Positions 30,548 through 50,488 of a stretch of 64,000 bases of DNA are shown one piece after another. The number at the start of each line of letters is the position of its first letter. The stretch's first letter is position 1. Below the pieces are notes generated by a model. That model did not search any database and was not told the DNA's origin. It saw nothing but the letters and a program-made list of their open reading frames with translations. This stretch comes from Acidimicrobiaceae bacterium (GTDB taxonomy: Bacteria; Actinomycetota; Acidimicrobiia; Acidimicrobiales; Aldehydirespiratoraceae). The DNA is taken from NCBI GenBank assembly GCA_009843735.1, contig VYCW01000051.1, positions 7,964 through 71,963 on the forward strand, given 5' to 3'. The position numbers and the translations under genes are program-made.

Positions 30548-32080
30548 ATGAGCGCCGCGCCGCGGCGGGGAAGCACGGCCACATCCAGTTTCGGCGTGAG
30601 CCGTCGCGAGGGCCATGACGCGTCCGCGTTCTACGAGCGTTTCCCAGTGCCTGAGATCAGCGACGACTCCGACGTAGCCCGCCCGCCGGGGGAGTGGCTC
30701 GACCGCCTGTGGGTGGGCGACGCCCGAAACATGGACGCGAATGGCAATGTGGCCGACAGCTCAGTCGCACTGGTGGTCACCTCACCGCCGTACTTCGCGG
30801 GCAAGGAGTACGAGGAGGCCGTCGGTCAGGGCCACATTCCCGCCGACTACGTGGCCTACGTCGAGATGCTCGAAGCCGTCTTCGCGGAGTGCGTGCGCAA
30901 GCTGGAGCCCGGTGGACGCATAGCCGTCAACGTCGCGAACCTGGGACGACGCCCCTACCGCTCCCTATCGGCCGATGTGATCAGGATCCTCCAGGACCGG
31001 CTGGGCCTGCTGCTGCGGGGCGAGGTCATCTGGCGCAAGGCTCGCGGCGCGGCGGGAAACTGCGCCTGGGGCAGCTTCCAGCGGCCCAGCAACCCGGTGC
31101 TGAGAGACCTCACCGAGCGGGTCGTGGTCGCCTCCAAGGGCCGCTTCGATCGAGCTGTGCCCGCGGCTCAGCGCGCCGCGCTGGGACTGCCCTCGGAAGG
31201 GACAGCCCCGGTGGACGAGTTCCTGGAGGCAACCACCGACGTCTGGGAGATTCCGGCCGCCTCGGCCACCCGGGTGGGGCATCCTGCGCCCTTCCCGGTC
31301 GAGCTGCCCCAGCGTCTGATCGACCTCTACACGTACCGTGGCGACCTAGTGCTCGATCCCTTCATGGGCGCCGGAACCACCGCGGTGGCCGCCGTGCGAA
31401 CCGGACGGCGCTACGTCGGTTTCGACACCGACGCCGGCTACATCGCCCTAGCCGAGGAGCGCATCAAGTCCGAACGTGAGCAGCTGGCCCGCCGATCGGA
31501 CATGGAGCGATGGGAGGTGACGGTCGCGCCGAGGGCCAACGGGCGTCAGTCGCGGCTGTTCGACGAGCCGCCCGCACAGCCATCCTCAAAGCGAAACAGT
31601 GCGGCCGCGCCGGTCAATGGCTCCGAATCCGACGCTGACGACAACTTCCAGGCTCGAGCGGTGCGGGAGGGGCGTAAGGCCCAGGAGCTGGCCTGGCAGG
31701 TAATGGCCGAGAGCGGCTTCGACAAGATCCAGAGCCGGGTCTCGCTCGAAGGAGGGGTCGAAGTCAACTACTCGGCGCTGGACCAGAGAGGCCGCCGGTG
31801 GCTATTCGACGTGTCGGGTGCGTTCAGCCTCACCCAGCGCCCCGGGCTGAGGCGCACGGACACGCTGTGGAAGGCGATCGGGCGAGCTGCCGTCCTGCAC
31901 TCGCGGCCCAACCGGGAGCCGCTGGTGCTGCTGACCACCGACCGCCCGGCTCCCAACAGCGCTGGGCAGCGCGCCCTGGATGCCATTACCGGTGACGACA
32001 AGCCGATCCGTGCTGTGATCGAGATGGGCAACCTCGAGGACCTGGAGCGTCTCACCCGCTTCGCGAGCGGCGACGTGTGA
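30548..32080 (+). CDS. Beta-class N4/N6 amino DNA methyltransferase (SPPY type) with a ~170-aa C-terminal domain of unknown function
   Basis: Motif IV VVTSPPYFAGKEYEE precedes motif I VLDPFMGAGTTAVAA, which is the beta permutation. After about residue 330 comes a low-complexity linker, then an extra domain (FQARAVREGRKAQELAWQVMAESGFDKI...WLFDVSGAF...). Confidence 0.85.
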   Translation: MSAAPRRGSTATSSFGVSRREGHDASAFYERFPVPEISDDSDVARPPGEWLDRLWVGDARNMDANGNVADSSVALVVTSPPYFAGKEYEEAVGQGHIPADYVAYVEMLEAVFAECVRKLEPGGRIAVNVANLGRRPYRSLSADVIRILQDRLGLLLRGEVIWRKARGAAGNCAWGSFQRPSNPVLRDLTERVVVASKGRFDRAVPAAQRAALGLPSEGTAPVDEFLEATTDVWEIPAASATRVGHPAPFPVELPQRLIDLYTYRGDLVLDPFMGAGTTAVAAVRTGRRYVGFDTDAGYIALAEERIKSEREQLARRSDMERWEVTVAPRANGRQSRLFDEPPAQPSSKRNSAAAPVNGSESDADDNFQARAVREGRKAQELAWQVMAESGFDKIQSRVSLEGGVEVNYSALDQRGRRWLFDVSGAFSLTQRPGLRRTDTLWKAIGRAAVLHSRPNREPLVLLTTDRPAPNSAGQRALDAITGDDKPIRAVIEMGNLEDLERLTRFASGDV

Positions 32081-32144
32081 GTCCGTGACCGGCGCGCTCG
32101 TCGATCAGGAGCGCAAGCGGTGCGGGTGAGCGCTCCGTTTCTCC

Positions 32145-33209
32145 ATGGCTGACGATCGCACCAAGATCACCGAACTGGCCACCGCCCTGGGAATGACGGG
32201 GCACAACACGCTGCAGGAGGCGCTCGAAGCGCGGCCCGACGTACTCGAGATCGGCTCCGATGACTGGGACGACCTAGCCCGCATAGTTCGCACCGGAAGG
32301 CTGACAGCGGTCGCCGAGACGGCCTTCTCCAACGGCGCCTACTTCGGATCCCACACCGATGGCCTTGCCGGACGGATTCCCCAGCACATCGAGTGGAGCG
32401 GAGGGAGGCGCATTCCCGGTGACAGGCCGGTGCCCGCGGACCTGCTGGTCGATCGGGTGTACATGATCAGCTGCAAGTACCTGTCGAGGATCCTCCACAA
32501 CACGGCGCCCGCCCATGTCTTCCTCGATGGCCTGGTGGCCGCGCCCGGATACCGCGGATTCAACTGGTTTCAAGAGGTGGCGCCGGACGCACACGAAGCC
32601 CTGTATGCCCGGACGGTGGAAGTCCTCGGCCTGGTCCCCATGGCGAAGACCCCTCAGGAACTGACCAGCGAACATCGCAAGAAGCTGAAGGCTGCCTTCA
32701 GAGAGCGAGCTGTGCCGGGACTCCCGGCCGAACTCGATCACCAGTACCAGAGACTCATCGATGAAGTGAGCCACGCGTCGGCTGAGCTGTGGAGGGAACT
32801 TCTCGGTGGTCGGGCGGACCAGGAGCGGATCCTCTGGCGGCTGCTACGCATCTATTCGTCCACGTACTTCATTCTCGGCATCGACCAGCGAAGAACCATG
32901 AGGCTTCGGGTCATCACGCCGTGGGAGTGGCGGCAGTCCTACCAGTTCGTGTCGCTCACGGTCAGAGCGGCCGGCCGGGGCCAGCCCCGGATCGACTGGG
33001 AGGCGACCTACCGTGACCTCGCCGCCGGCCAACGCCGTCGCGTCAGGGGTCATGTCGAGATCCGGTGGAGCCATCGCCCGTTCTGCGAGCCACCCGAGGC
33101 GAAGGTGTACCTCGACACCCCGCACGCGCAGGTGCCGGGCTATCGCCGGCTCGACCACACCGACGAGCCCCCGCCCTACGACCAGCAGAGCCTGATCGAC
33201 TGCCCCTGA
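32145..33209 (+). CDS. Hypothetical protein; possible PD-(D/E)xK-like nuclease partner of the adjacent methyltransferase
   Basis: 354-aa ORF, 64 nt downstream of the MTase on the same strand. I recognise no family. The segment PVPADLLVDRVYMISCKY resembles a PD...(S/E)xK motif variant. The functional call is inference only. Confidence 0.45.
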   Translation: MADDRTKITELATALGMTGHNTLQEALEARPDVLEIGSDDWDDLARIVRTGRLTAVAETAFSNGAYFGSHTDGLAGRIPQHIEWSGGRRIPGDRPVPADLLVDRVYMISCKYLSRILHNTAPAHVFLDGLVAAPGYRGFNWFQEVAPDAHEALYARTVEVLGLVPMAKTPQELTSEHRKKLKAAFRERAVPGLPAELDHQYQRLIDEVSHASAELWRELLGGRADQERILWRLLRIYSSTYFILGIDQRRTMRLRVITPWEWRQSYQFVSLTVRAAGRGQPRIDWEATYRDLAAGQRRRVRGHVEIRWSHRPFCEPPEAKVYLDTPHAQVPGYRRLDHTDEPPPYDQQSLIDCP

Positions 33210-33262: not shown

Positions 33263-33754
33263 CTAGGAGACCTCGAAGCACCAGCGGACGGTGTCGGACT
33301 CGTCGGGACGGGCGATGAGCACGAATCTCGCGATCACGCAGTTCGTGTCCGGCGACAGGGCTTCGATGAGGCGGCCCTCGCCGGGCGCGAACTCGAAGCG
33401 GTTGAGCCCCTCCATGTGCTCGACCTCTGAGGTCACGTCAACCCCCTCGGTGGCATTGTCGCTCGGCAGGATCACCATCGAGGAGAGCCGGTAGCGGGCG
33501 TCCAGGACTACGCCGACCCGCTGCTGCTGGAGCACTTCGTCGCCGGGGTTGGGGATCACCCGGTCCACCGCAGGCCCCGCCGTGACGGCGCGTTCGGATT
33601 CGTCTTCACCCGAGCCGACCAGCGCGGCCACGACGAAGCCCAATATCCCGAACAGCGCGAGCGCGACGATGCCCACTCGTATCCGCCACCCGCTGCGCAG
33701 GCGCGGCGGCGAGGAGTCGGGGCCCTGTCCGTTCGTTGCCATCTCGTGTCGCAC
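33263..33754 (-). CDS. Single-pass membrane-anchored protein, unknown function
   Basis: 163 aa with an N-terminal basic stretch, then the TM helix IRVGIVALALFGILGFVVAALVG, then a beta-rich ectodomain. It is divergent from the pseudokinase. The start may be the M at 33742. Confidence 0.55.
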   Translation of the reverse strand: MRHEMATNGQGPDSSPPRLRSGWRIRVGIVALALFGILGFVVAALVGSGEDESERAVTAGPAVDRVIPNPGDEVLQQQRVGVVLDARYRLSSMVILPSDNATEGVDVTSEVEHMEGLNRFEFAPGEGRLIEALSPDTNCVIARFVLIARPDESDTVRWCFEVS

Positions 33755-33815
33755 AGTACCGGACCCCGGCGACAGCCCCTTGCGTCCCTATCATCGCCAC
33801 GCCGGTACCGTGGCG

Positions 33816-35381
33816 ATGATGGTCACGCCCGCAGAGTCGTTGCGATCCTTCGGCGATCGTTACCGGTTGCTGAAGCTCGTCGGCGAGGGTTCGAGCGCGC
33901 GGGTCTATGTGGCCGAGGATCTCACGCTTCACCGGCGTGTCGCCCTCAAGATCCTGAAGGTGGAGATAGCCGATGACACCAGCTTCCGGGACCGCTTCGC
34001 GGCGGAGATGAGAGCGACGTCGCTGCTGAACCATCCCCGGGTCCTGCCTGTGTACGACTGGGGCCTGGACCCTCAGCCCTACTCCGTCACCGAGTACCTC
34101 ACCGGCGGCAGCCTGGCCATGCTCCTGGACGCCGGGCACCGCCTGACCCCGTCGCAGGCGCTGGTGATGGGATTGGAGGCGGCTCGGGCCCTGGTGAACA
34201 TCCATGCCGGCGGCCGGGCCCATCTGAGTCTCGGGCCGTCCGCCATCCTGTTCGACTCCGGCGCCCGCCCCTACATCTCCGACCTTGGACTGTCGGCGGC
34301 GCTGCTGCCGGCCGCCGCCAGCGACGGCGACGCTCCTGAAGAATCCGAGGAAACCGAGGAGTCCGGGGACGTCTCGCCGGCCGCCGCCGAGACGCCGGAC
34401 GGCGGCGCCGATGACGATGGCGCCCGATCGGCGACCGAGCCGGAGGCGGGCCCGGACGAGCAGGCAGCGGCTGCTCGGAGCTACTCACCGCTGGAGCAGA
34501 CCCAGGACGTGCACGACCTGGCGCTGCTCCTCTGCGAGGCCGTGACCGGCTCCAGGGCCCTGACCGCCGATGACGGCGACGAAGCCTCCATGGCTTCGCT
34601 GACCGCGCTCGGCCCCCTGCAGGCCGTGCTGGCGCGGGCCGCCGCGGCTGAACCCGCCGACCGGCTCAGCGCGGCGGACCTGGCCGAGGAGCTGCTGAGA
34701 GTGGCAAACCTGCTCCCAAGGCCCGATCCGATCCCTGTCCCGTCCGAGTACAGCCCTCCGAGCGCTTCGGCCGCAGCCTCCTACGATCAGACCGAGGACT
34801 TCGCGCAGGTCGGCCCCTCAGTGTCGGAGCGTTCGGCAGTGCCGCTCGACGATGCTCCCCGCCGTCGCTGGCCGGGAATCGTCCTTGCCGCGATCCTGGT
34901 CCTCGGCGGGGCTGCAGCCGGGGTGTGGGCTTTGTTCCTGAGAGGCACCGACAACCCCGCGGTGCCTGAACTGGAAGGCCAGACGCTCGGCGCCGCGACG
35001 TCCGTTGCGGCCGACCTGGGCTGGCAGGTCAACGAGATACTGGTGCGCGAGTCCGGCACCAGCCGCGGACGGGTGGTGCGTACCGAGCCACCCGCCGGTG
35101 GCACCCTCGACGAGGGTGCCACTCTGGACCTGTTCGTGTCGCTGGGCGAGCCACTCATACCGGTGTCGGACCTGCGCTTCCTTTACGGCATGTCGGTCGA
35201 GGAAGCCACCGACGAGCTGGAGTCGCTGGGTCTGAACCCATCGGGGGAGACGCCCGTCAACGATGCCGTCGTGCCGTCGGGACTGGTGGTCGGCCTCGAC
35301 GTGGAGGAGGGCGTCTACGAACTGGAAGTGGGGGCCGAGGTAGACCTGCTGGTGTCGGACGGCCCGTCCGAGGCCGGGTAG
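33816..35381 (+). CDS. PknB-like Ser/Thr protein pseudokinase with a TM helix and two PASTA-like domains
   Basis: The start was trimmed to ATG 33816 (GTG 33810 is also possible). The G-loop GEGSSARV, VALKIL Lys and alphaC Glu are retained. The catalytic loop reads HLSLGPSA (34221-34244) instead of HRDxKPxN, and DFG is DLG. The C-terminus has WPGIVLAAILVLGGAAAGVWALFL followed by 2 PASTA-like repeats. Confidence 0.85.
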   Translation: MMVTPAESLRSFGDRYRLLKLVGEGSSARVYVAEDLTLHRRVALKILKVEIADDTSFRDRFAAEMRATSLLNHPRVLPVYDWGLDPQPYSVTEYLTGGSLAMLLDAGHRLTPSQALVMGLEAARALVNIHAGGRAHLSLGPSAILFDSGARPYISDLGLSAALLPAAASDGDAPEESEETEESGDVSPAAAETPDGGADDDGARSATEPEAGPDEQAAAARSYSPLEQTQDVHDLALLLCEAVTGSRALTADDGDEASMASLTALGPLQAVLARAAAAEPADRLSAADLAEELLRVANLLPRPDPIPVPSEYSPPSASAAASYDQTEDFAQVGPSVSERSAVPLDDAPRRRWPGIVLAAILVLGGAAAGVWALFLRGTDNPAVPELEGQTLGAATSVAADLGWQVNEILVRESGTSRGRVVRTEPPAGGTLDEGATLDLFVSLGEPLIPVSDLRFLYGMSVEEATDELESLGLNPSGETPVNDAVVPSGLVVGLDVEEGVYELEVGAEVDLLVSDGPSEAG

Positions 35382-35402
35382 CGCTCCGGCTATATTGCCC
35401 GA

Positions 35403-35705
35403 GTGTCCGGTCGAATCAGCCGCGACGAGGCCGCCCACGTAGCCCGGCTGGCCCGCCTGCGCTTCAGCGACGACGAACTCGACGAACTCGCCGCGCAGCT
35501 GTCGGCCGTGCTCGACCACGCGGCCGACGTGGAGGCGCTGGACGTCTCCGGCATCGAGCCCACCTCCCATCCTCAGCCGCTCACCGACGTGACCAGGGTC
35601 GACGAGGTGCGGCCCTCGCTGGAACGTGACGAGGTCCTCGCCCAGGCGCCGTCGGTGGCCGAGGGCCAGTTCCGGGTGCCGCCGATCCTTGGAGAGGCGC
35701 CGTGA
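35403..35705 (+). CDS. gatC: Asp/Glu-tRNA amidotransferase subunit C
   Basis: 100 aa with [27 protein letters not shown]. It overlaps gatA by 4 nt. Confidence 0.9.
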
Positions 35706-37195
35706 CCGCGCTGGGAGTCGCGGCGGCGGTGAACGCCGGGGAACGCACCGCCCGCTCCGTGGCGGAGGACTACCTGGACCGCATAAGCAAGGGCGACGGC
35801 GAGATAGGGGCCTTCAACCTGGTGCTGGCCGAGGAGGCCCTCGCCGACGCGGACCGCATCGACGCCGCCGTGGGCCGGGGTGAGCCGGTAGGGCCCCTGG
35901 CGGGGGTGCCGGTGGCCCTCAAGGACAACCTCTGCACCCGGGGCATCCCCACCACCTGCTCGTCACGGATGCTCGAGGGCTGGCGGCCCCCGTACAGCGC
36001 AACCGTGGTTCAGCGCCTCAGGGCCGCGGGCGCCGTGATCGTCGGCAAGACCAATCTCGACGAGTTCGCCATGGGCTCCTCCACCGAGAACTCCGCCTTC
36101 GGCCCGACCCGCAACCCCCACGACACCAGCCGGGTGCCCGGAGGCTCCAGCGGCGGCTCGGCCGCGGCGGTGGCCGCCGGCTTCGCCGCGCTGGCCCTCG
36201 GGTCCGACACCGGAGGCTCCATCCGCCAGCCCGCCGCCCTGTGCGGTGTGGTGGGGATGAAACCGACCTACGGGCGGGTGTCGCGCTACGGCCTGGTCGC
36301 CTTAGCGTCCTCGCTCGACCAGATCGGCCCGTTCGGGACCAACGTGGCCGACGCGGCCGCCTGCTACGAGGCCATCGCCGGCCACGACCCGCTCGACTCG
36401 ACCTCGATCGACCAGCCGGTGGAGCCGGTAGGGAAGGCGCTCACCGACGGGGTCGAGGGACTGAGGGTCGGGGTGGTCGCCGAGCTCTGCGGAGGCCGGC
36501 CGCAGGAGGCTCACCTCGCTGGCACGGACGGGTCCGCGGCGAGCGGCGTCGAGGGAGTCGCCGGCGACGTGCTGTCGCGGGTGCAGGACGCCGCCGAGGC
36601 GCTGGAGCAGGCTGGCGCCGAAGTGCGGACGGTGTCGGTGCCGTCCGCGGTGCTGGGACTGTCGGCCTACTACCTGATCGCCCCGGCCGAGGCCTCCAGC
36701 AACCTGGCCAGGTACGACGGTGTGCGCTACGGGCTGCGGGTCGACGCGGCCAACGCCGCCGAGATGAACGTCAACACCCGCACTGCCGGCTTCGGAGCGG
36801 AGGTCAAGCGCAGGATCATGCTCGGCACCTACGCCCTGTCCGCCGGCTACTACGACGCCTTCTACGGCAAGGCGCTACGGGCGCGCACCCTCATGCTGCA
36901 GGAATTTGCAACCGTCTACGAGGACGTCGACGTCCTGCTCTGCCCAACCGCGCCGACGACCGCGTTCGAGTTGGGGGCCAAGACCGCCGACCCGCTGCTG
37001 ATGTACCTCAACGACGTGTGCACCATCCCGTCCAACCTCACCGGCCACCCGGCGATATCGGTGCCCTTCGGGCGGGGGGACGACGGTCTCCCCGTCGGCG
37101 TGCAGGTCATGGGCCCGGCCCTGTCGGAGCGGTTGATCTTCCGGGTCGCGGCCGCGCTGGAGCGGACCGCGCCCGGCGACGGGAGCACACCGTGA
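35702..37195 (+). CDS. gatA: Asp/Glu-tRNA amidotransferase subunit A
   Basis: The amidase signature is [14 protein letters not shown], together with [13 protein letters not shown]. Confidence 0.95.
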
Positions 37196-38652
37196 GCGGA
37201 ACACCCGAGCGCGAGGGAACTCTTGCCGACGGATGGGAGCTGGTGGTGGGCCTTGAGGTCCACGTCGAGCTGAGCACGGCCACCAAGCTGTTCTGCGGCT
37301 GCGCCAACCGCTTCGGCGACGAGCCCAACACCAACGTGTGCCCGGTGTGCCTGGGCCTGCCCGGCTCGCTGCCGGTGGTCAACGCGGCTGCGGTCGACTT
37401 CGCCATGCGCCTGGGCCGGGCCCTCGGATGCGAGGTGCGCCCGGCGGTGTTCGCCCGGAAGAACTACTTCTACCCCGACATGCCCAAGGACTACCAGATC
37501 TCCCAGTACGACCAGCCCACCAACACCGACGGCTGTCTGGAGCTGCCCGACGGCGATGTGGTGGGCATCGAGCGGGCCCACATCGAGGAGGACACCGGCA
37601 AGACCACCCACGTGGGCGGGGGCGGGCGCATCCACGACGCCGACCACGCGCTGGTGGACTACAACCGGGCCGGCGTGCCGCTGGTGGAGATCGTCAGCCG
37701 CCCCGACATCCGCGGTGCCGAGCAGGCCCGGACCTACGTGCGGGAGCTGCGGGCCATCCTGCTCGCCATCGGCGTGTCCGACGCCCGGATGGAGGAGGGC
37801 TCCATGCGGGTGGACGCCAACGTGTCGGTGCGCCCGGTCGGCTCCAACGAGCTGCGGACCCGCTGCGAGATCAAGAACCTGAGCTCGCTTCGCTCGCTGG
37901 GCCGGGCCATCGCATTCGAGGCTCACCGCCACGTCGATCTGTGGTCGGGTGGGGAGCGGCCCCGCCAGGAGACCCGCCACTGGGACGAGGCGGGCGGTCG
38001 CACCACGCCGGGGCGCTCCAAGGAGGACGCCGAGGACTACCGCTACTTCCAGGATCCCGACCTGGTGCCGCTGGCGCCCTCGGCCGACCAGGTCGCAGCC
38101 ATAGACGCCGCGCTGCCCGTACTGCCGGCGGCCCGCCGGGCCGCGCTCCTGGCCGCAGGCGCCGGAGCCGTTTCGGCCTCCGACGCGGCCCTGCTGGTGG
38201 AGCGGGACCAGGACGCACTGGTCCGGACCGCGGTCGCGATGGGGGCCGACCCGGGCCTGACCGCGACCAGGGTGTCCAACGACCTGGCCGTCGACGACTG
38301 GTCCCGAGTGACGCCGGACGGCCTGGCCGCCCTGATCGGGTTGGAGGCCTCGGGGCAGATCACCGCCACCCAGGCCAAGCAGGTGCTGGCCGAGATGGTG
38401 GAGGCTGGTGATGATCCGGCCTCCATCGCCGAGCGTCGCGGCTTCCAGGCCATGGCCGGCGACGACCTGGCCGCAACCGTCGACCGGGTGATCGCCGGCA
38501 ACCCCGACGAGTGGCAGCGGTTCTGCTCCGGCGACGACACCGACCGCAAGAAGCTGTCCGGGTTCTTCATCGGCCAAGTGATGCGGTCCACCCGGGGCCG
38601 GGCCGACGGCGCCGCCGTCAACCGCCTGCTTCAGGAGAAGGCCGGCGGCTGA
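37192..38652 (+). CDS. gatB: Asp/Glu-tRNA amidotransferase subunit B
   Basis: I trimmed the 803-aa track ORF to the GTG at 37192, which forms a GTGA overlap with the gatA stop. The N-terminus reads [23 protein letters not shown]. Confidence 0.95.
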
Positions 38653-40130: not shown

Positions 40131-42413
40131 ATGAGCGTGTCGGCGCCCTCGGAGGCCGCCTCACCGGGCGTGCCCGCCCGGGCTGCTTCGCGCCTGCCGG
40201 GCCTCGACGGGCTTCGGGGCCTGGCGGTGGCGTGGGTGCTTGCCTTCCACCTGTGGCCCGATCTAGTGCGGGGCGGCTGGCTGGGGGTGGGTCTGTTCTT
40301 CACGCTGTCCGGCTACCTGATCGCGGGGTTGCTCGACAAGGAGGTCACTGCCACCGGCCATCTGCGGCTGGGACGGTTCATGGCCCGGCGGGTCCGCCGG
40401 CTGCTGCCGGCTGCGCTGGTGACGATCGCGGCCACTCTGGCGCTGACCGCGCTGCTGGACGACCAGCCGCTGCGCACCATCGGCATCGATTCGCTGACCG
40501 CGGCGCTGAACGTGTTCAACTGGCACGCGTCCCTCGACGAGACGGGCTACGCAGGGATCTTCGAGGCCGCACCGGAGCCGCTGGCCCATTTCTGGTCCCT
40601 GGCGATCGAGGAGCAGTTCTACCTGGTCTTCCCGGCCGCGGTCGCTCTGATCCGGAGACCCGGCCGGGTGGTGGCCGCGATGGCGGTCATCGGTCTGGGC
40701 GGCGTGTGGCTGTGGTGGGGATCGACCGACGCCTACGTGGCCACCCCGGTGCGCGCGTTGGAGATCGCGGCGGGCGCAGGTCTGGCCGTGGCCCAGGCCC
40801 GCTACGGCGCGGTGCGCCGCCTGTTCCAGCCTCCTGCGGACCTGCCCCGCTCGTCACGGATTGCCTGGGCTGTGCTGCTGGCGGTCGCGGCTGCGCTCAC
40901 CGTGGTCTCGGTGTTGCGTCTCGGGCCCGACGACGGATTCGTTTTCCGGGGCGGTCCCCAACTGATGGCGCTGTGCTGGGTGGTGCTGGTGATCGCCGCG
41001 GTGCGAGACGGCTGGCCGGCCCGATTCATGTCCTGGGCGCCGCTGCGCTGGCTGGGTCTGCGCTCCTATGCCATCTACCTGTTCCACTGGCCGGTGATCG
41101 AGTTGACCGACTGGCATCCGGTAGTGGTCATCGTGGTCACGCTGGGACTCGCCGAGGCATCGTTCCATCTGCTGGAGATGCCCGTGCGCCGCGGCACCGG
41201 CCGGCTCGCCATACCGGTGCTGGCCGCAGCCGCGGCCGCGGTGGTGACGGTGGCTGCGGTGGCCGCGGCCGCCTCCGCGCCGGAGCGCGGCATCGCAGAA
41301 CGGGCCGAGGGCGCCGACGAACTGCCGGCCTGGCTGACCGAGCAGGAGGAGCCGGCCGTCGCCGCGCCGACCACACAGCCGGCTCCGACGTCGGCACCCG
41401 AGCAGCCGGCCCCGGACACGGCTGCGGCGACGGTGCCGGTGACGCATCCCACCACGGTCGAGCAGCCCGACGAGCAGTCCCAGGACCCCGAGCCCTCCGC
41501 GCCCGACCCCTCCGCGTCGGCGCCCGCGGCGCCGACTTCGGAACAACCCGAGTCGGAACCATCCCCGGCCACGTCCGAACCGCCGGTGACCGAGGCGCCG
41601 CAGCCCGAAACGGACTCCGAGCCGATACCGGACAAGCCCGACGGCGCCGACGACGCGACGCCGGGGACCACTGCGCCGGTCACGGCGCCACCGCAGCCCG
41701 AGACCACCTTCACGGTGCCGATCGTCACCGTTCTCGGCGACTCCGCCGCGGTCCACATCGCCGACGGGCTGCGCGAGTGGGGCAACGCCAGCCGCCTGAT
41801 GGCAGTGGTGGACCATTCCCGGATCGGCTGCTCGCCCGCGGGCACGGCCGGCAGCGGCTGGCGCTACCTGCGGGGCAACATCGGCGACGAGGCCAGTCCC
41901 ATGGGGTTCCTGGAGGACCGGGCGTGCCGCGACGACTTCATCCAGGACGGCTCGCACGCCGTACTGGTCGTCGACCACGGCGCGGTGCTGTTCGACCACC
42001 TCAGCGCCGACGGCGACTGGGTGTCGATCCTCGACCCCGCTCTGGCGGCCGACGTGGCCGACTCCTACCGGCGCCTGGTGGCCAAGGCCCGGGGCGTCGG
42101 GGCCCGGGTGATGTTCACCACCGCGCCGGTGCTGCTCCCTAGCTACGACCGGACCGCCGCCGACCAGCCCCAGACCAGTCCCGACAGGGCCGAGGCCTAC
42201 AACACGCTCCTGCGGGGGCTGGTCGAGGAACTCAACACGGCAGGCGTCCCCCAGCCGGTAGGGCTGATCGACACCGCCGCGGTGCTGGACAACTACGGCT
42301 ACGACGGCACCTTTGGCCGTTCCGACGGCATGCACCTTGACTACGACCGGGCCGAGGTCTTCGCGGCCGAGGTGCTGGGTCCCGCGGTGCTGGCCCTGCT
42401 CGATCTCGAGTAG
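40131..42413 (+). CDS. Acyltransferase-3 (OafA-like) membrane domain fused through an acidic Pro/Thr/Glu-rich linker to an SGNH-like domain
   Basis: The N-terminus reads LPGLDGLRGLAVAWVLAFHLW and continues into about 10 TM segments. The linker at about 41300-41710 is low-complexity (PEPSAPDPSASAPAAPTSEQPESEPSPATSEPP). The C-terminal domain starts VTVLGDSAAVHIADG (GDS block). Confidence 0.8.
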   Translation: MSVSAPSEAASPGVPARAASRLPGLDGLRGLAVAWVLAFHLWPDLVRGGWLGVGLFFTLSGYLIAGLLDKEVTATGHLRLGRFMARRVRRLLPAALVTIAATLALTALLDDQPLRTIGIDSLTAALNVFNWHASLDETGYAGIFEAAPEPLAHFWSLAIEEQFYLVFPAAVALIRRPGRVVAAMAVIGLGGVWLWWGSTDAYVATPVRALEIAAGAGLAVAQARYGAVRRLFQPPADLPRSSRIAWAVLLAVAAALTVVSVLRLGPDDGFVFRGGPQLMALCWVVLVIAAVRDGWPARFMSWAPLRWLGLRSYAIYLFHWPVIELTDWHPVVVIVVTLGLAEASFHLLEMPVRRGTGRLAIPVLAAAAAAVVTVAAVAAAASAPERGIAERAEGADELPAWLTEQEEPAVAAPTTQPAPTSAPEQPAPDTAAATVPVTHPTTVEQPDEQSQDPEPSAPDPSASAPAAPTSEQPESEPSPATSEPPVTEAPQPETDSEPIPDKPDGADDATPGTTAPVTAPPQPETTFTVPIVTVLGDSAAVHIADGLREWGNASRLMAVVDHSRIGCSPAGTAGSGWRYLRGNIGDEASPMGFLEDRACRDDFIQDGSHAVLVVDHGAVLFDHLSADGDWVSILDPALAADVADSYRRLVAKARGVGARVMFTTAPVLLPSYDRTAADQPQTSPDRAEAYNTLLRGLVEELNTAGVPQPVGLIDTAAVLDNYGYDGTFGRSDGMHLDYDRAEVFAAEVLGPAVLALLDLE

Positions 42414-49003: not shown

Positions 49004-50488
49004 GTGCACAACAGTAGCGACGGCACGGCCATTGACACCGAGCGGGCCTGGAAGCTCCTGATCGGCGGGGAGTGGGTCGACCCGGCTGGGGGGACCTACC
49101 CGGTCATCGACCCCAACGACGGCAGCGTCGTGGGTCACGCTCCCGAGGCGACCGCGACCCAGGCGAACGACGCTGCCTCGGCAGCCCGCGAGGCGCTTCC
49201 GCAGTGGCGGGCCCTCAGCCCCGAGGAGCGCGGCAACCGCCTGGCCCGTCTGGCCGGTGTGATCGAGCGGATGGCGCCGTCGTGGCTCGAGCTGGTCCAG
49301 GCCGAGACCGGCTCGGTGACCTCCATCGCCAAGGGACTCCAGGTGGGCGGGCCCATGATCGAGCGGTTCCGCTACTACTCGAGGCCGATCAACGTCGACG
49401 AGGACGTGGCCCCCATGCCGGCTGAGGCTGGGGCGCTGGGTCCGGCCGGACTGATCGCGGCCACGGTTAAGCGCCACCCGGTGGGGGTGGTGGCCTGCGT
49501 CACCCCCTACAACATGCCGCTGGTGAACGTGGCCGGCAAGGTCGCCCCGGCGCTGGCCGCAGGCAACACCGTGGTGATCAAGCCCGCTCCCCAGGACCCG
49601 CTGGGCGTGCTGCTGCTCGGCGAGGCGGTAGCCGAGGCCGGTCTGGGCGACGGCGTGGTCAACATCGTCACCGGTTCAGGACCGGAGGCACCGGCGGCTC
49701 TGGTGGCCTCCACCGACGTGAACATGGTGTCGTTCACCGGCTCGACCGCCGTGGGCGCCCGCATCTACGCGGACGGCGCGGCCACCATGAAGCGGGTACT
49801 GATGGAGCTCGGCGGCAAGGGCGCGCTGGTGATGACCGAGGACGCCGACGTGAACGCGGCCTGCATGGGGATCGCCACCACCTGGGGGCTCCACTCGGGC
49901 CAGATCTGCACCGCGCCGACCCGGGTGATCTGCCATCGCAGCATCCTCGGCCAGACGGTGGAGACGCTGAAGGCCTTCGCGGGCTTCATGAAGGTGGGCG
50001 ACGGCCGAGCGCCAGACACCATCGTCGGTCCGGTCATCACCGAGGCCCACCGCGACCGGGTCGAGGGCTTCATCGCGGGCGGGATCGACGCCGGGGCGAC
50101 CGCCGTGTGCGGCGGGCAGCGGCCCGATCTGCCCGGCTACTTCGTGGAGCCCACCCTGCTGGCGGACGTGACCCCTGGCATGGAAGTCGCGCGCGAAGAG
50201 GCTTTCGGGCCGGTGGTGGTGGTCCTGGCCCACGACGGCGACGACGAGGCCGTGGCCCTGGCCAACGACTCGTCGTACGGTCTGTTCTCCTACGTCTACG
50301 CCGGCGACGCCAAGCGGGCCTACGAGATCGGCTGCCGGCTGGAGTCCGGCAACGTGGCTCTCAACACCGTGCAGCCCCACATGTACGCCCCCTTCGGCGG
50401 CTTCAAGATGTCGGGCATCGGCCGAGACCGGGGCAAGTGGGGCATAGAGGCCTACACCGAGATCCAAGCCATCAACTGGCTCTCCTAG
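49004..50488 (+). CDS. NAD(P)-dependent aldehyde dehydrogenase
   Basis: It has KLLIGGEWVD, the catalytic Glu in ELGGKG and the catalytic Cys in SGQICTAPTR. The start is uncertain: I chose the in-frame GTG at 49004, and the ATG at 48926 would overlap the divergent thiolase start. Confidence 0.85.
   Translation: MHNSSDGTAIDTERAWKLLIGGEWVDPAGGTYPVIDPNDGSVVGHAPEATATQANDAASAAREALPQWRALSPEERGNRLARLAGVIERMAPSWLELVQAETGSVTSIAKGLQVGGPMIERFRYYSRPINVDEDVAPMPAEAGALGPAGLIAATVKRHPVGVVACVTPYNMPLVNVAGKVAPALAAGNTVVIKPAPQDPLGVLLLGEAVAEAGLGDGVVNIVTGSGPEAPAALVASTDVNMVSFTGSTAVGARIYADGAATMKRVLMELGGKGALVMTEDADVNAACMGIATTWGLHSGQICTAPTRVICHRSILGQTVETLKAFAGFMKVGDGRAPDTIVGPVITEAHRDRVEGFIAGGIDAGATAVCGGQRPDLPGYFVEPTLLADVTPGMEVAREEAFGPVVVVLAHDGDDEAVALANDSSYGLFSYVYAGDAKRAYEIGCRLESGNVALNTVQPHMYAPFGGFKMSGIGRDRGKWGIEAYTEIQAINWLS

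Follow-up and report, generated by a model that had tools for sequence, protein, structure and literature searches.

A PknB-like PASTA pseudokinase of the Aldehydirespiratoraceae that lacks the catalytic residues and keeps the nucleotide-pocket motifs of its active relatives

Can a PknB-type PASTA receptor be maintained after its kinase domain has lost the residues that carry out catalysis and, if so, what might such a receptor do? The question is raised by a gene in a 64,000-nucleotide stretch of DNA from an Acidimicrobiaceae bacterium (contig VYCW01000051.1 of assembly GCA_009843735.1, positions 7,964 to 71,963 of the forward strand; hereafter the window), in which positions 33816–35381 of the forward strand form an intact open reading frame (ORF) of 521 codons plus stop. 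PASTA kinases (PknB, StkP, PrkC and PrkA) have a central part in regulating how Gram-positive bacteria grow, divide and tolerate beta-lactams, and the way in which these kinases are activated is still debated (PMC13434768). The protein studied here, whose family members are named by NCBI just 'PASTA domain-containing protein', had been described in an earlier reading of the letters of the window (the sequence-only reading) as a membrane pseudokinase of PknB-like architecture. We therefore ask (i) whether the catalytic residues are indeed absent; (ii) whether the degenerate state is conserved and under selection; and (iii) what the ancestry and the function of the protein may be.

The N-terminal domain is PknB-like by three methods, as the sequence-only reading had proposed. 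The Pfam Pkinase profile matches residues 16–163 only (E 3e-16); phmmer aligns residues 12–166 to the kinase domain of Mycobacterium tuberculosis PknB (PDB entry 1MRU), with a sole gap of five residues in the beta4–beta5 loop; and a Foldseek search with the predicted structure returned the kinase domains of M. tuberculosis PknB and PknA as the top PDB matches (E about 1e-16, target TM-score 0.65–0.74). The catalytic loop is ungapped in the phmmer alignment, which places HLSLGPSA (residues 136–143; 34221–34244, forward strand, as are all features of this gene) over HRDVKPAN of PknB. Compared with the consensus HRDxKPxN, the catalytic Asp is replaced by Ser, the Lys by Gly and the Asn by Ala, and the His is retained. 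No alternative register that would supply an HRD Asp or a catalytic Asn was found in the alignment to PknB, and the substitutions lie at exactly the position at which they had been read. The alignment also upholds the reading of DFG as DLG (residues 156–158; 34281–34289), in which the metal-binding Asp and the Gly are retained. Of the HRDxKxxN signature, the protein thus has neither the catalytic Asp nor the Lys nor the Asn that binds Mg. Profile and structural comparisons had been suggested as a check by the sequence-only reading; of those made, the phmmer alignment confirms the substitutions, and Pfam, AlphaFold2 and Foldseek agree on the kinase domain. Pseudokinases are generally defined by the loss of at least one of the VAIK Lys, the HRD Asp and the DFG Asp; here, the HRD Asp is absent, and Lys45 and Asp156 are present, which places the protein within this definition.

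The motifs of the nucleotide pocket, by contrast, are still in place. They include the Gly-rich loop GEGSSARV (residues 23–30; 33882–33905), the segment VALKIL with the beta3 Lys45 (residues 42–47; 33939–33956), and the alphaC Glu64, the salt-bridge partner of Lys45 (34005–34007); the hinge is kept as well. Each of the motifs previously listed as conserved (GEGSSARV, VALKIL, FAAEMRA and YSPLEQ) is present and is conserved across the family; Lys45 is invariant and Glu64 at least 90% conserved within it, and both are also conserved in active relatives. Similarly, the phmmer equivalences identify counterparts of three residues of the PknB N-lobe back-to-back dimer (33858–34058), all invariant in the family and retained in active relatives: Arg15, which corresponds to R10 of PknB (a residue that we take to belong to this dimer), Leu38 (L33) and Asp81 (D76). 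L33D and D76A are mutations that break the back-to-back dimer of PknB, the interface of which has been proposed to position alphaC (PMC13434768; PDB entry titles). Further downstream, SYSPLEQ, a remnant of the P+1/APE segment, is followed by the C-lobe helices alphaF to alphaI (residues 222–300; 34479–34715), for which the predicted local distance difference test (pLDDT) score is mostly above 90, falling to about 77 at residues 251–260. Asp231 of alphaF and Arg283 of subdomain XI are retained in this part, and the alphaG region has diverged.

Losses and retentions were compared in a single alignment of 22 family members and 93 canonical relatives, in which a residue was considered lost if it is at least 80% conserved in the active set and absent from the family. 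Lost by this measure are R137, D138, K140, N143, F157 and R161, the alphaD arginine R101, the activation-loop/P+1 residues GT..RY, and positions 247, 248 and 254 in alphaG, the docking/front-to-front surface. Common to both sets are G23, G25, V30, A43, K45, E64, E93, L95, L145, H136, D156, G158, D231 and R283, as well as the dimer-face residues R15, L38 and D81. Glu24 in the Gly-rich loop is a family-specific gain and is invariant. In an atlas of bacterial serine/threonine kinases, the alphaD Arg (PknB R101) is a substrate-specificity determinant that is specific to the PASTA kinases (KAPD) (bioRxiv 10.1101/2025.01.12.632604). At this position, 101, the family has Ala in 91% of its members, whereas 88% of the active relatives have Arg, so that the alphaD Arg characteristic of KAPD kinases is missing. 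The activation loop with a phospho-acceptor Thr and a GT..Y..PE P+1 segment is missing as well, there being no conserved Thr and nothing left of the P+1 segment other than SYSPLEQ. This family-wide alignment agrees with the earlier view that the catalytic residues are absent while the nucleotide-pocket motifs stay. It suggests that catalytic, activation and substrate-handling elements have all been removed, such that canonical phosphotransfer is most likely no longer possible, and that both the adenine/phosphate pocket motifs and the N-lobe dimer face are preserved at the level of the aligned residues.

The degenerate state is not a peculiarity of this contig. The homologue search listed 120 clusters (51–97% identity) from Acidimicrobiaceae metagenome-assembled genomes, and among the GTDB species representatives, which were also scanned, 32 species-level genomes carry the gene, several of them closed chromosomes, including long-read ones. 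These genomes, which bear the labels Candidatus Aldehydirespirator, Acidimicrobiaceae or Acidimicrobiales, belong to the family Aldehydirespiratoraceae; none of the host organisms is in culture, all being known from metagenome-assembled genomes alone. The family, formerly UBA11606, comprises sponge symbionts as well as free-living forms (PMC11706023). A dead loop of the form H-[LF]-[GS]-L-x-x-x-x is present in all 120 homologue clusters and in all 32 species-level genomes, and in each of the 120 clusters it is accompanied by VALK, the alphaC Glu (occasionally Gln) and DLG. Within the family, the loop positions of the Lys and the Asn vary (G/V/T/A/S and S/A, respectively). The next outgroup (locus L038, 42% identity) has canonical HRDIKPAN and DFG.

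We determined the ratio of nonsynonymous to synonymous substitution rates (dN/dS) by region in pairwise comparisons of the query with 13 orthologues. It is 0.02–0.31 for the N-lobe together with the dead catalytic loop, 0.11–0.34 for the C-lobe, 0.18–0.41 for the PASTA repeats and 0.38–1.29 for an acidic insert that is described below; in the closest comparisons, the N-lobe is the most constrained region apart from the 25-residue transmembrane helix. Few parts of the protein are as strongly constrained as the dead kinase core, which excludes both gene decay and sequencing error as explanations. The notion that sequencing or frameshift errors, or a recent inactivation, account for the missing residues is in effect refuted, and we assign it a negligible probability: the same substitutions recur in 32 independent genomes, the dN/dS values of the core are well below 1, and the frameshift errors that the sequence-only reading had named as fatal to its proposal were looked for, the ORF proving intact and free of frameshifts in all 32 genomes. 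Conservation of the HLS/DLG state among orthologues, which had been left as a check, is thereby established, along with purifying selection on it. An apparently truncated copy at locus L037 turned out to be an artefact of taking the best high-scoring segment pair; its ORF is full length.

The remainder of the protein also conforms to a PASTA receptor. Pfam PASTA (PF03793) matches two stretches (E 1.7e-19), which correspond to two predicted extracytoplasmic repeats at residues ~380–445 and 447–516 (34953–35363; pLDDT mostly above 90), and these follow a transmembrane helix at residues 353–375 (34872–34940), which is directly preceded by RRRWPG, coincides with a hydropathy maximum of 2.39 and is helical in the AlphaFold2 model. 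A single transmembrane helix followed by PASTA repeats is the arrangement expected of PASTA kinases, and the earlier assignment of a transmembrane helix and two PASTA-like repeats to the C-terminal half is borne out by Pfam, hydropathy and structure prediction alike. The AlphaFold2 model, computed from a 138-sequence alignment, has a mean pLDDT of 84.5, with both kinase lobes confident (pLDDT above 90), two PASTA folds and disordered segments at residues 164–221 and ~310–350; a model from a shallow, family-only alignment had a poor N-lobe and a mean pLDDT of 59, and was discarded in favor of it. Together with the Foldseek matches, the model indicates the bilobal Hanks-type fold of Stk1/PknB-type kinases. 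We conclude that the protein is, by sequence and model, a predicted bitopic, PknB-like PASTA membrane protein. Its start is ambiguous by two codons (GTG at 33810, ATG at 33816, ATG at 33819), and the N-termini of orthologues read MMV, MV or MAxV.

Three further characters separate the family from active PASTA kinases. The activation loop is replaced by an acidic disordered insert (residues 164–221, 58 amino acids; 34305–34478; pLDDT 43–61), the slice of residues 164–222 (59 residues) containing 18 acidic and two basic residues. The sequence-only reading had thus been correct about an acidic insertion in the activation segment, but its length of roughly 70 amino acids was too high, and the P+1/APE remnant SYSPLEQ is kept. 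Across the family, acidic residues make up 23% of the insert and Ser/Thr 15%, and its length ranges from 25 to 158 amino acids; correspondingly, the distance from DxG to alphaF is 30–163 amino acids in the family, compared to 40–53 in active relatives. In eight of the 120 orthologue clusters (P0034, P0042, P0049, P0055, P0058, P0059, P0064 and P0070), the insert contains two to five tandem copies of a 12-amino-acid unit, EQGSxxRSYSPTEQ, that includes the P+1/APE remnant, which fits a slippage-prone disordered linker. The second character is the juxtamembrane motif GPSVSERSAVPLDD (residues 333–346; 34812–34853), which lies within the disordered linker preceding the membrane and shows little or no variation within the family but is absent from active relatives. 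The third is the ectodomain, whose length corresponds to about two PASTA repeats in 81 of 120 family clusters and to about four in 96 of 105 active relatives.

To what does this pseudokinase owe its origin? Relatives were sought exhaustively among 1.84 billion cluster representatives, and genomic-context look-ups followed. Three of them (P0129, P0131 and P0138) are PASTA kinases with canonical HRDIKPAN and DFG that occupy the same position, beside a homologous small, divergently oriented gene: P0129 and P0131 are flanked by ligA on one side and by gatAB or gatCAB on the other, and P0138, from a short contig, directly precedes gatC. On the NCBIfam PASTA-kinase model NF033483, these active positional orthologues score 389–462 bits, whereas the query scores 175 bits, far below the curated cutoff of 450. 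As canonical kinases are found at the same locus in other Acidimicrobiia, the pseudokinase is the positional orthologue of the active Stk1/PknB-type kinase of this class, and it appears to have died in place. None of the four canonical relatives viewed by context (P0129, P0131, P0138 and P0251) is a separate PknB of a division gene cluster; all four have the small divergent gene upstream, the three whose contigs are long enough to tell adjoin gatCAB, and two of these three also show ligA. A sister dead lineage (P0121; YCGLTASS and DLG, 705 amino acids) is likewise located at ligA/gatCAB.

Furthermore, about 30 of the closest 150 representatives lack the HRD Asp, with loops such as HFGVKPSN, HGGVRPSN, HRGLKPAN and HRNIKPEN (examples are P0130, P0134, P0135, P0125, P0127, P0128, P0172, P0214 and locus L041), and some of them also lack the alphaC Glu or the beta3 Lys. 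P0130 is at another locus and yet again stands beside a homologue of the small gene. Loss of catalysis therefore seems, from the loop sequences, to be recurrent in this group of PASTA kinases. In a neighbour-joining tree of ~157 N-lobe columns, most dead forms group together and further losses are scattered, which is a hint only, as the tree was built without support values and may be affected by long-branch attraction.

The small gene that accompanies both active and dead kinases lies, in the window, at 33263–33742 on the reverse strand (alternative start GTG at 33754) and encodes a predicted small bitopic membrane protein of ~159 amino acids, with one transmembrane helix and a ~110-residue extracytoplasmic domain. 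It is separated from the pseudokinase gene by a divergent intergenic region of 73 bp (33743–33815), which presumably contains the promoters of both genes; a consensus scan of this region found no sigma-70-like promoter, the consensus being uninformative for this taxon. In every locus with complete flanks, a homologue of the small gene is directly upstream of, and divergent from, the kinase or pseudokinase gene, and homologues (27–65% identity, ~135–185 amino acids) adjoin active PASTA kinases and other dead lineages as well. Profile searches of Pfam, NCBIfam and PDB gave no match for the protein; of its 127 detected homologues, those that have a name are called 'hypothetical protein'. Two cysteines of its extracytoplasmic domain, C138 and C158, do not vary among the four closest orthologues, though they do across the wider family. 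Each complete Aldehydirespirator chromosome occurs once among the homologues, a weak hint that the module of small partner and (pseudo)kinase is single-copy in these genomes.

Directly downstream of the pseudokinase gene, on the same strand, are gatC (35403–35705), gatA (35702–37195) and gatB (to 38652; together 35403–38652). The 21-nucleotide spacer between the pseudokinase stop and the gatC GTG (35379–35405 with both codons included) contained no terminator-like site in the same consensus scan, with the same reservation about the taxon, and pseudokinase and gatCAB are probably co-transcribed. In orthologues, the spacing to gatC varies from an overlap (loci L004 and L044) to 300–400 bp. The order ligA, variable DNA-methylase cassette, small gene (reverse), pseudokinase (forward), gatCAB, MATE transporter is found in all related loci with sufficient flank. 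In the window, the cassette region (30548–33209) holds an N6/N4 DNA methyltransferase with a long C-terminal extension (30548–32080, forward strand), between ligA and the small membrane gene, and an adjacent ORF of 354 amino acids without a family match (32145–33209, forward strand). The methylase is present in most related genomes, where its orientation flips, and the 354-residue ORF is present in a subset only; the region looks like a variable restriction-modification-like cassette. About 5 kb downstream of the pseudokinase gene, a 760-residue fusion of acyltransferase-3 and SGNH domains (40131–42413, forward strand) has an OatA-like architecture, is syntenic in loci L001 and L003, and is possibly a cell-envelope O-acyltransferase. 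Between ~16000 and 28000 of the window, the G+C content is 0.64–0.67, compared to 0.70–0.72 elsewhere, which may reflect an island or different gene content. A weak PASTA-like match at 50237–50467 on the reverse strand was rejected as spurious, since it is antisense to an aldehyde dehydrogenase gene.

Among known systems, the Stk1/PknB-type PASTA kinases (PknB, StkP and PrkC; KAPD; NF033483) are the closest, providing the best matches in both sequence and structure. Like them, the pseudokinase combines a Hanks fold with a juxtamembrane linker, one transmembrane helix and PASTA repeats, and the N-lobe dimer and ATP-pocket residues are common to both. Unlike them, it lacks the catalytic Asp, Lys and Asn, the DFG motif, the activation loop with its Thr, the alphaD Arg and the alphaG surface, and it has two PASTA repeats rather than about four. 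As it departs from these kinases in catalytic loop, activation loop, alphaD Arg and score against the hidden Markov model, it ought not to be classed with the PASTA kinases.

The only precedent to which the sequence-only reading had pointed was the MviN/MurJ-linked pseudokinase of mycobacteria. This proved too narrow: seven families of bacterial Hanks-type pseudokinases have been described in addition to YukC/EssB, none of them with PASTA repeats (PMC12599244; bioRxiv 10.1101/2025.01.12.632604). In all seven (ActPs1, ActPs2, ActPs3, GLW, CP1, DYD and DLHK) the VAIK Lys is substituted, in every member of five families and in 34–60% of CP1 and DYD according to the same sources, whereas Lys45 is invariant here, and judged by its sequence the pseudokinase fits none of them. 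A full-text literature search, the coverage of which is incomplete, retrieved no description of a PASTA-linked pseudokinase. MviN itself (Rv3910; ActPs3) is similar: it, too, is a Hanks-type pseudokinase of actinobacteria that is tethered to the membrane, has an extracytoplasmic domain and a link to the cell wall, and acts in a non-catalytic manner. However, MviN forms a fusion protein with the MurJ flippase, and its ectodomain binds carbohydrate and has no PASTA repeats; all three catalytic motifs have degenerated, aromatic residues occupy the ATP pocket, and the activation loop has been deleted. In our protein, by contrast, Lys, Glu and the DxG Asp are kept together with the pocket residues, an insert takes the place of the activation loop, and there is no MurJ domain. 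ActPs2 is likewise actinobacterial and has a C-terminal transmembrane helix and a large disordered insertion in the activation loop, but its beta3 Lys is replaced by Arg and its HRD Asp by Asn, DFG is deleted, 32 amino acids are inserted between beta3 and alphaC, and no PASTA repeats have been reported; both Lys45 and the DxG Asp are invariant in the present family. YukC/EssB of type VIIb secretion resembles the pseudokinase in being a bitopic scaffold with an N-terminal cytoplasmic pseudokinase domain, one transmembrane helix and an extracellular domain; it differs in belonging to type VIIb operons of Firmicutes, in having no PASTA repeats and in being highly divergent from Hanks kinases. No secretion genes were found in the examined flanks of the pseudokinase locus. 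Analogues also exist outside the bacteria: the receptor pseudokinases HER3 and plant BIR2 keep a ligand-binding ectodomain, have lost the catalytic base and act by allosteric dimerisation with an active relative, HER3 retaining its nucleotide pocket. They differ from the protein studied here in being of an unrelated lineage and having an unrelated ectodomain.

What, then, might such a receptor do? We favor, with a probability of roughly 60%, the interpretation that it is a nucleotide-binding, non-catalytic PASTA receptor pseudokinase that descended in place from an active kinase and now serves as a scaffold or allosteric partner. A role of this kind is most likely the most reasonable reading of the retained and lost residues, from which we infer nucleotide binding, dimerisation, a ligand and partners. 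The two PASTA repeats would bind or localise to cell-wall material, probably acting together with the small, divergently encoded membrane partner; the nucleotide-bound pseudokinase domain would relay the signal by dimerisation, either with itself or with an active Hanks kinase; and cytoplasmic partners would be recruited through the juxtamembrane motif GPSVSERSAVPLDD and the acidic disordered insert. Several points weigh against this interpretation. Nucleotide binding is read from the retained motifs; the N-lobe residues, being conserved in active relatives too, could serve fold stability rather than dimerisation; a residual activity comparable to that of HER3 may persist; the reduction of the ectodomain to about two PASTA repeats could mean that ligand sensing is altered or weakened; and tblastn with N-lobe and PASTA queries found no second kinase or PASTA gene in the 64-kb window, so that no active partner is seen there.

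The insert and the linker could alternatively act as a phospho-acceptor scaffold of the MviN type, in which an active Hanks kinase phosphorylates Ser/Thr residues of either segment, thereby recruiting FHA or other phospho-binding proteins. The abundance of acidic (23%) and Ser/Thr (15%) residues in the insert would suit PknB-type (KAPD) kinases, which favor acidic residues N-terminal to the acceptor, and both the family-specific VSERS in the juxtamembrane linker and the precedent of MviN point in the same direction. We nevertheless consider this unlikely, since neither the insert nor the juxtamembrane motif has a conserved Thr, whereas FHA domains bind phosphothreonine; the insert evolves near-neutrally and varies from 25 to 158 amino acids; no gene for an FHA protein or an active kinase was found in the flanks examined; and a phospho-acceptor scaffold leaves the conservation of the ATP pocket unexplained. 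That conservation would be accounted for if the protein were still an enzyme, albeit an atypical one, performing weak or Mg-independent phosphotransfer (as HER3 and CASK do), using a relocated catalytic residue (WNK) or carrying out other nucleotide chemistry (SelO, SidJ): the pocket residues, the Lys45–Glu64 pair and the DxG Asp are under strong selection, and Glu24 is invariant. However, three catalytic-loop residues have disappeared together, the positions of the Lys and the Asn are variable, and the activation loop, the substrate-binding Arg and the alphaG surface have been lost in parallel, which suggests relaxed selection for catalysis and substrate binding; we regard residual enzymatic activity as improbable, and as less probable than the phospho-acceptor scaffold.

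It is also conceivable that the ectodomain alone is functional, the PASTA repeats anchoring the protein in the cell wall or acting as a sink for ligand, with the cytoplasmic domain left as an inert remnant. The repeats are conserved (dN/dS 0.18–0.41), and mycobacterial growth is reported to be perturbed when the PASTA ectodomain of PknB is overexpressed by itself (PMC4632501). A kinase domain that is predicted to fold confidently and whose dead N-lobe has dN/dS values as low as 0.02, and below 0.31 throughout, is difficult to reconcile with an inert remnant, and we consider this explanation very improbable.

For the Aldehydirespiratoraceae, these results raise the possibility, which we put forward tentatively, that the PASTA receptor kinase of their ancestors, which in these genomes would be the sole copy of the module paired with the small protein, became a nucleotide-binding pseudokinase, leaving these organisms with PASTA sensing without receptor phosphotransfer. 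If this were true, pseudokinase and small bitopic partner would constitute an undescribed two-protein membrane module and a natural instance of kinase-independent signalling by a PknB-type receptor. The finding would overturn nothing, as it amounts to a combination of two known kinds of protein, the bacterial Hanks-type pseudokinase and the PASTA receptor; it would, however, add to the classification of bacterial pseudokinases a type that is missing from it, namely one that is HRD-less, Lys-retaining and PASTA-linked. A further outcome is a candidate for a conserved partner of PASTA kinases in the Acidimicrobiia, whether active or dead, namely the uncharacterised small membrane protein. Moreover, the active orthologues at the same locus are built-in controls, which may serve to separate the non-catalytic from the phosphotransfer parts of a PASTA kinase.

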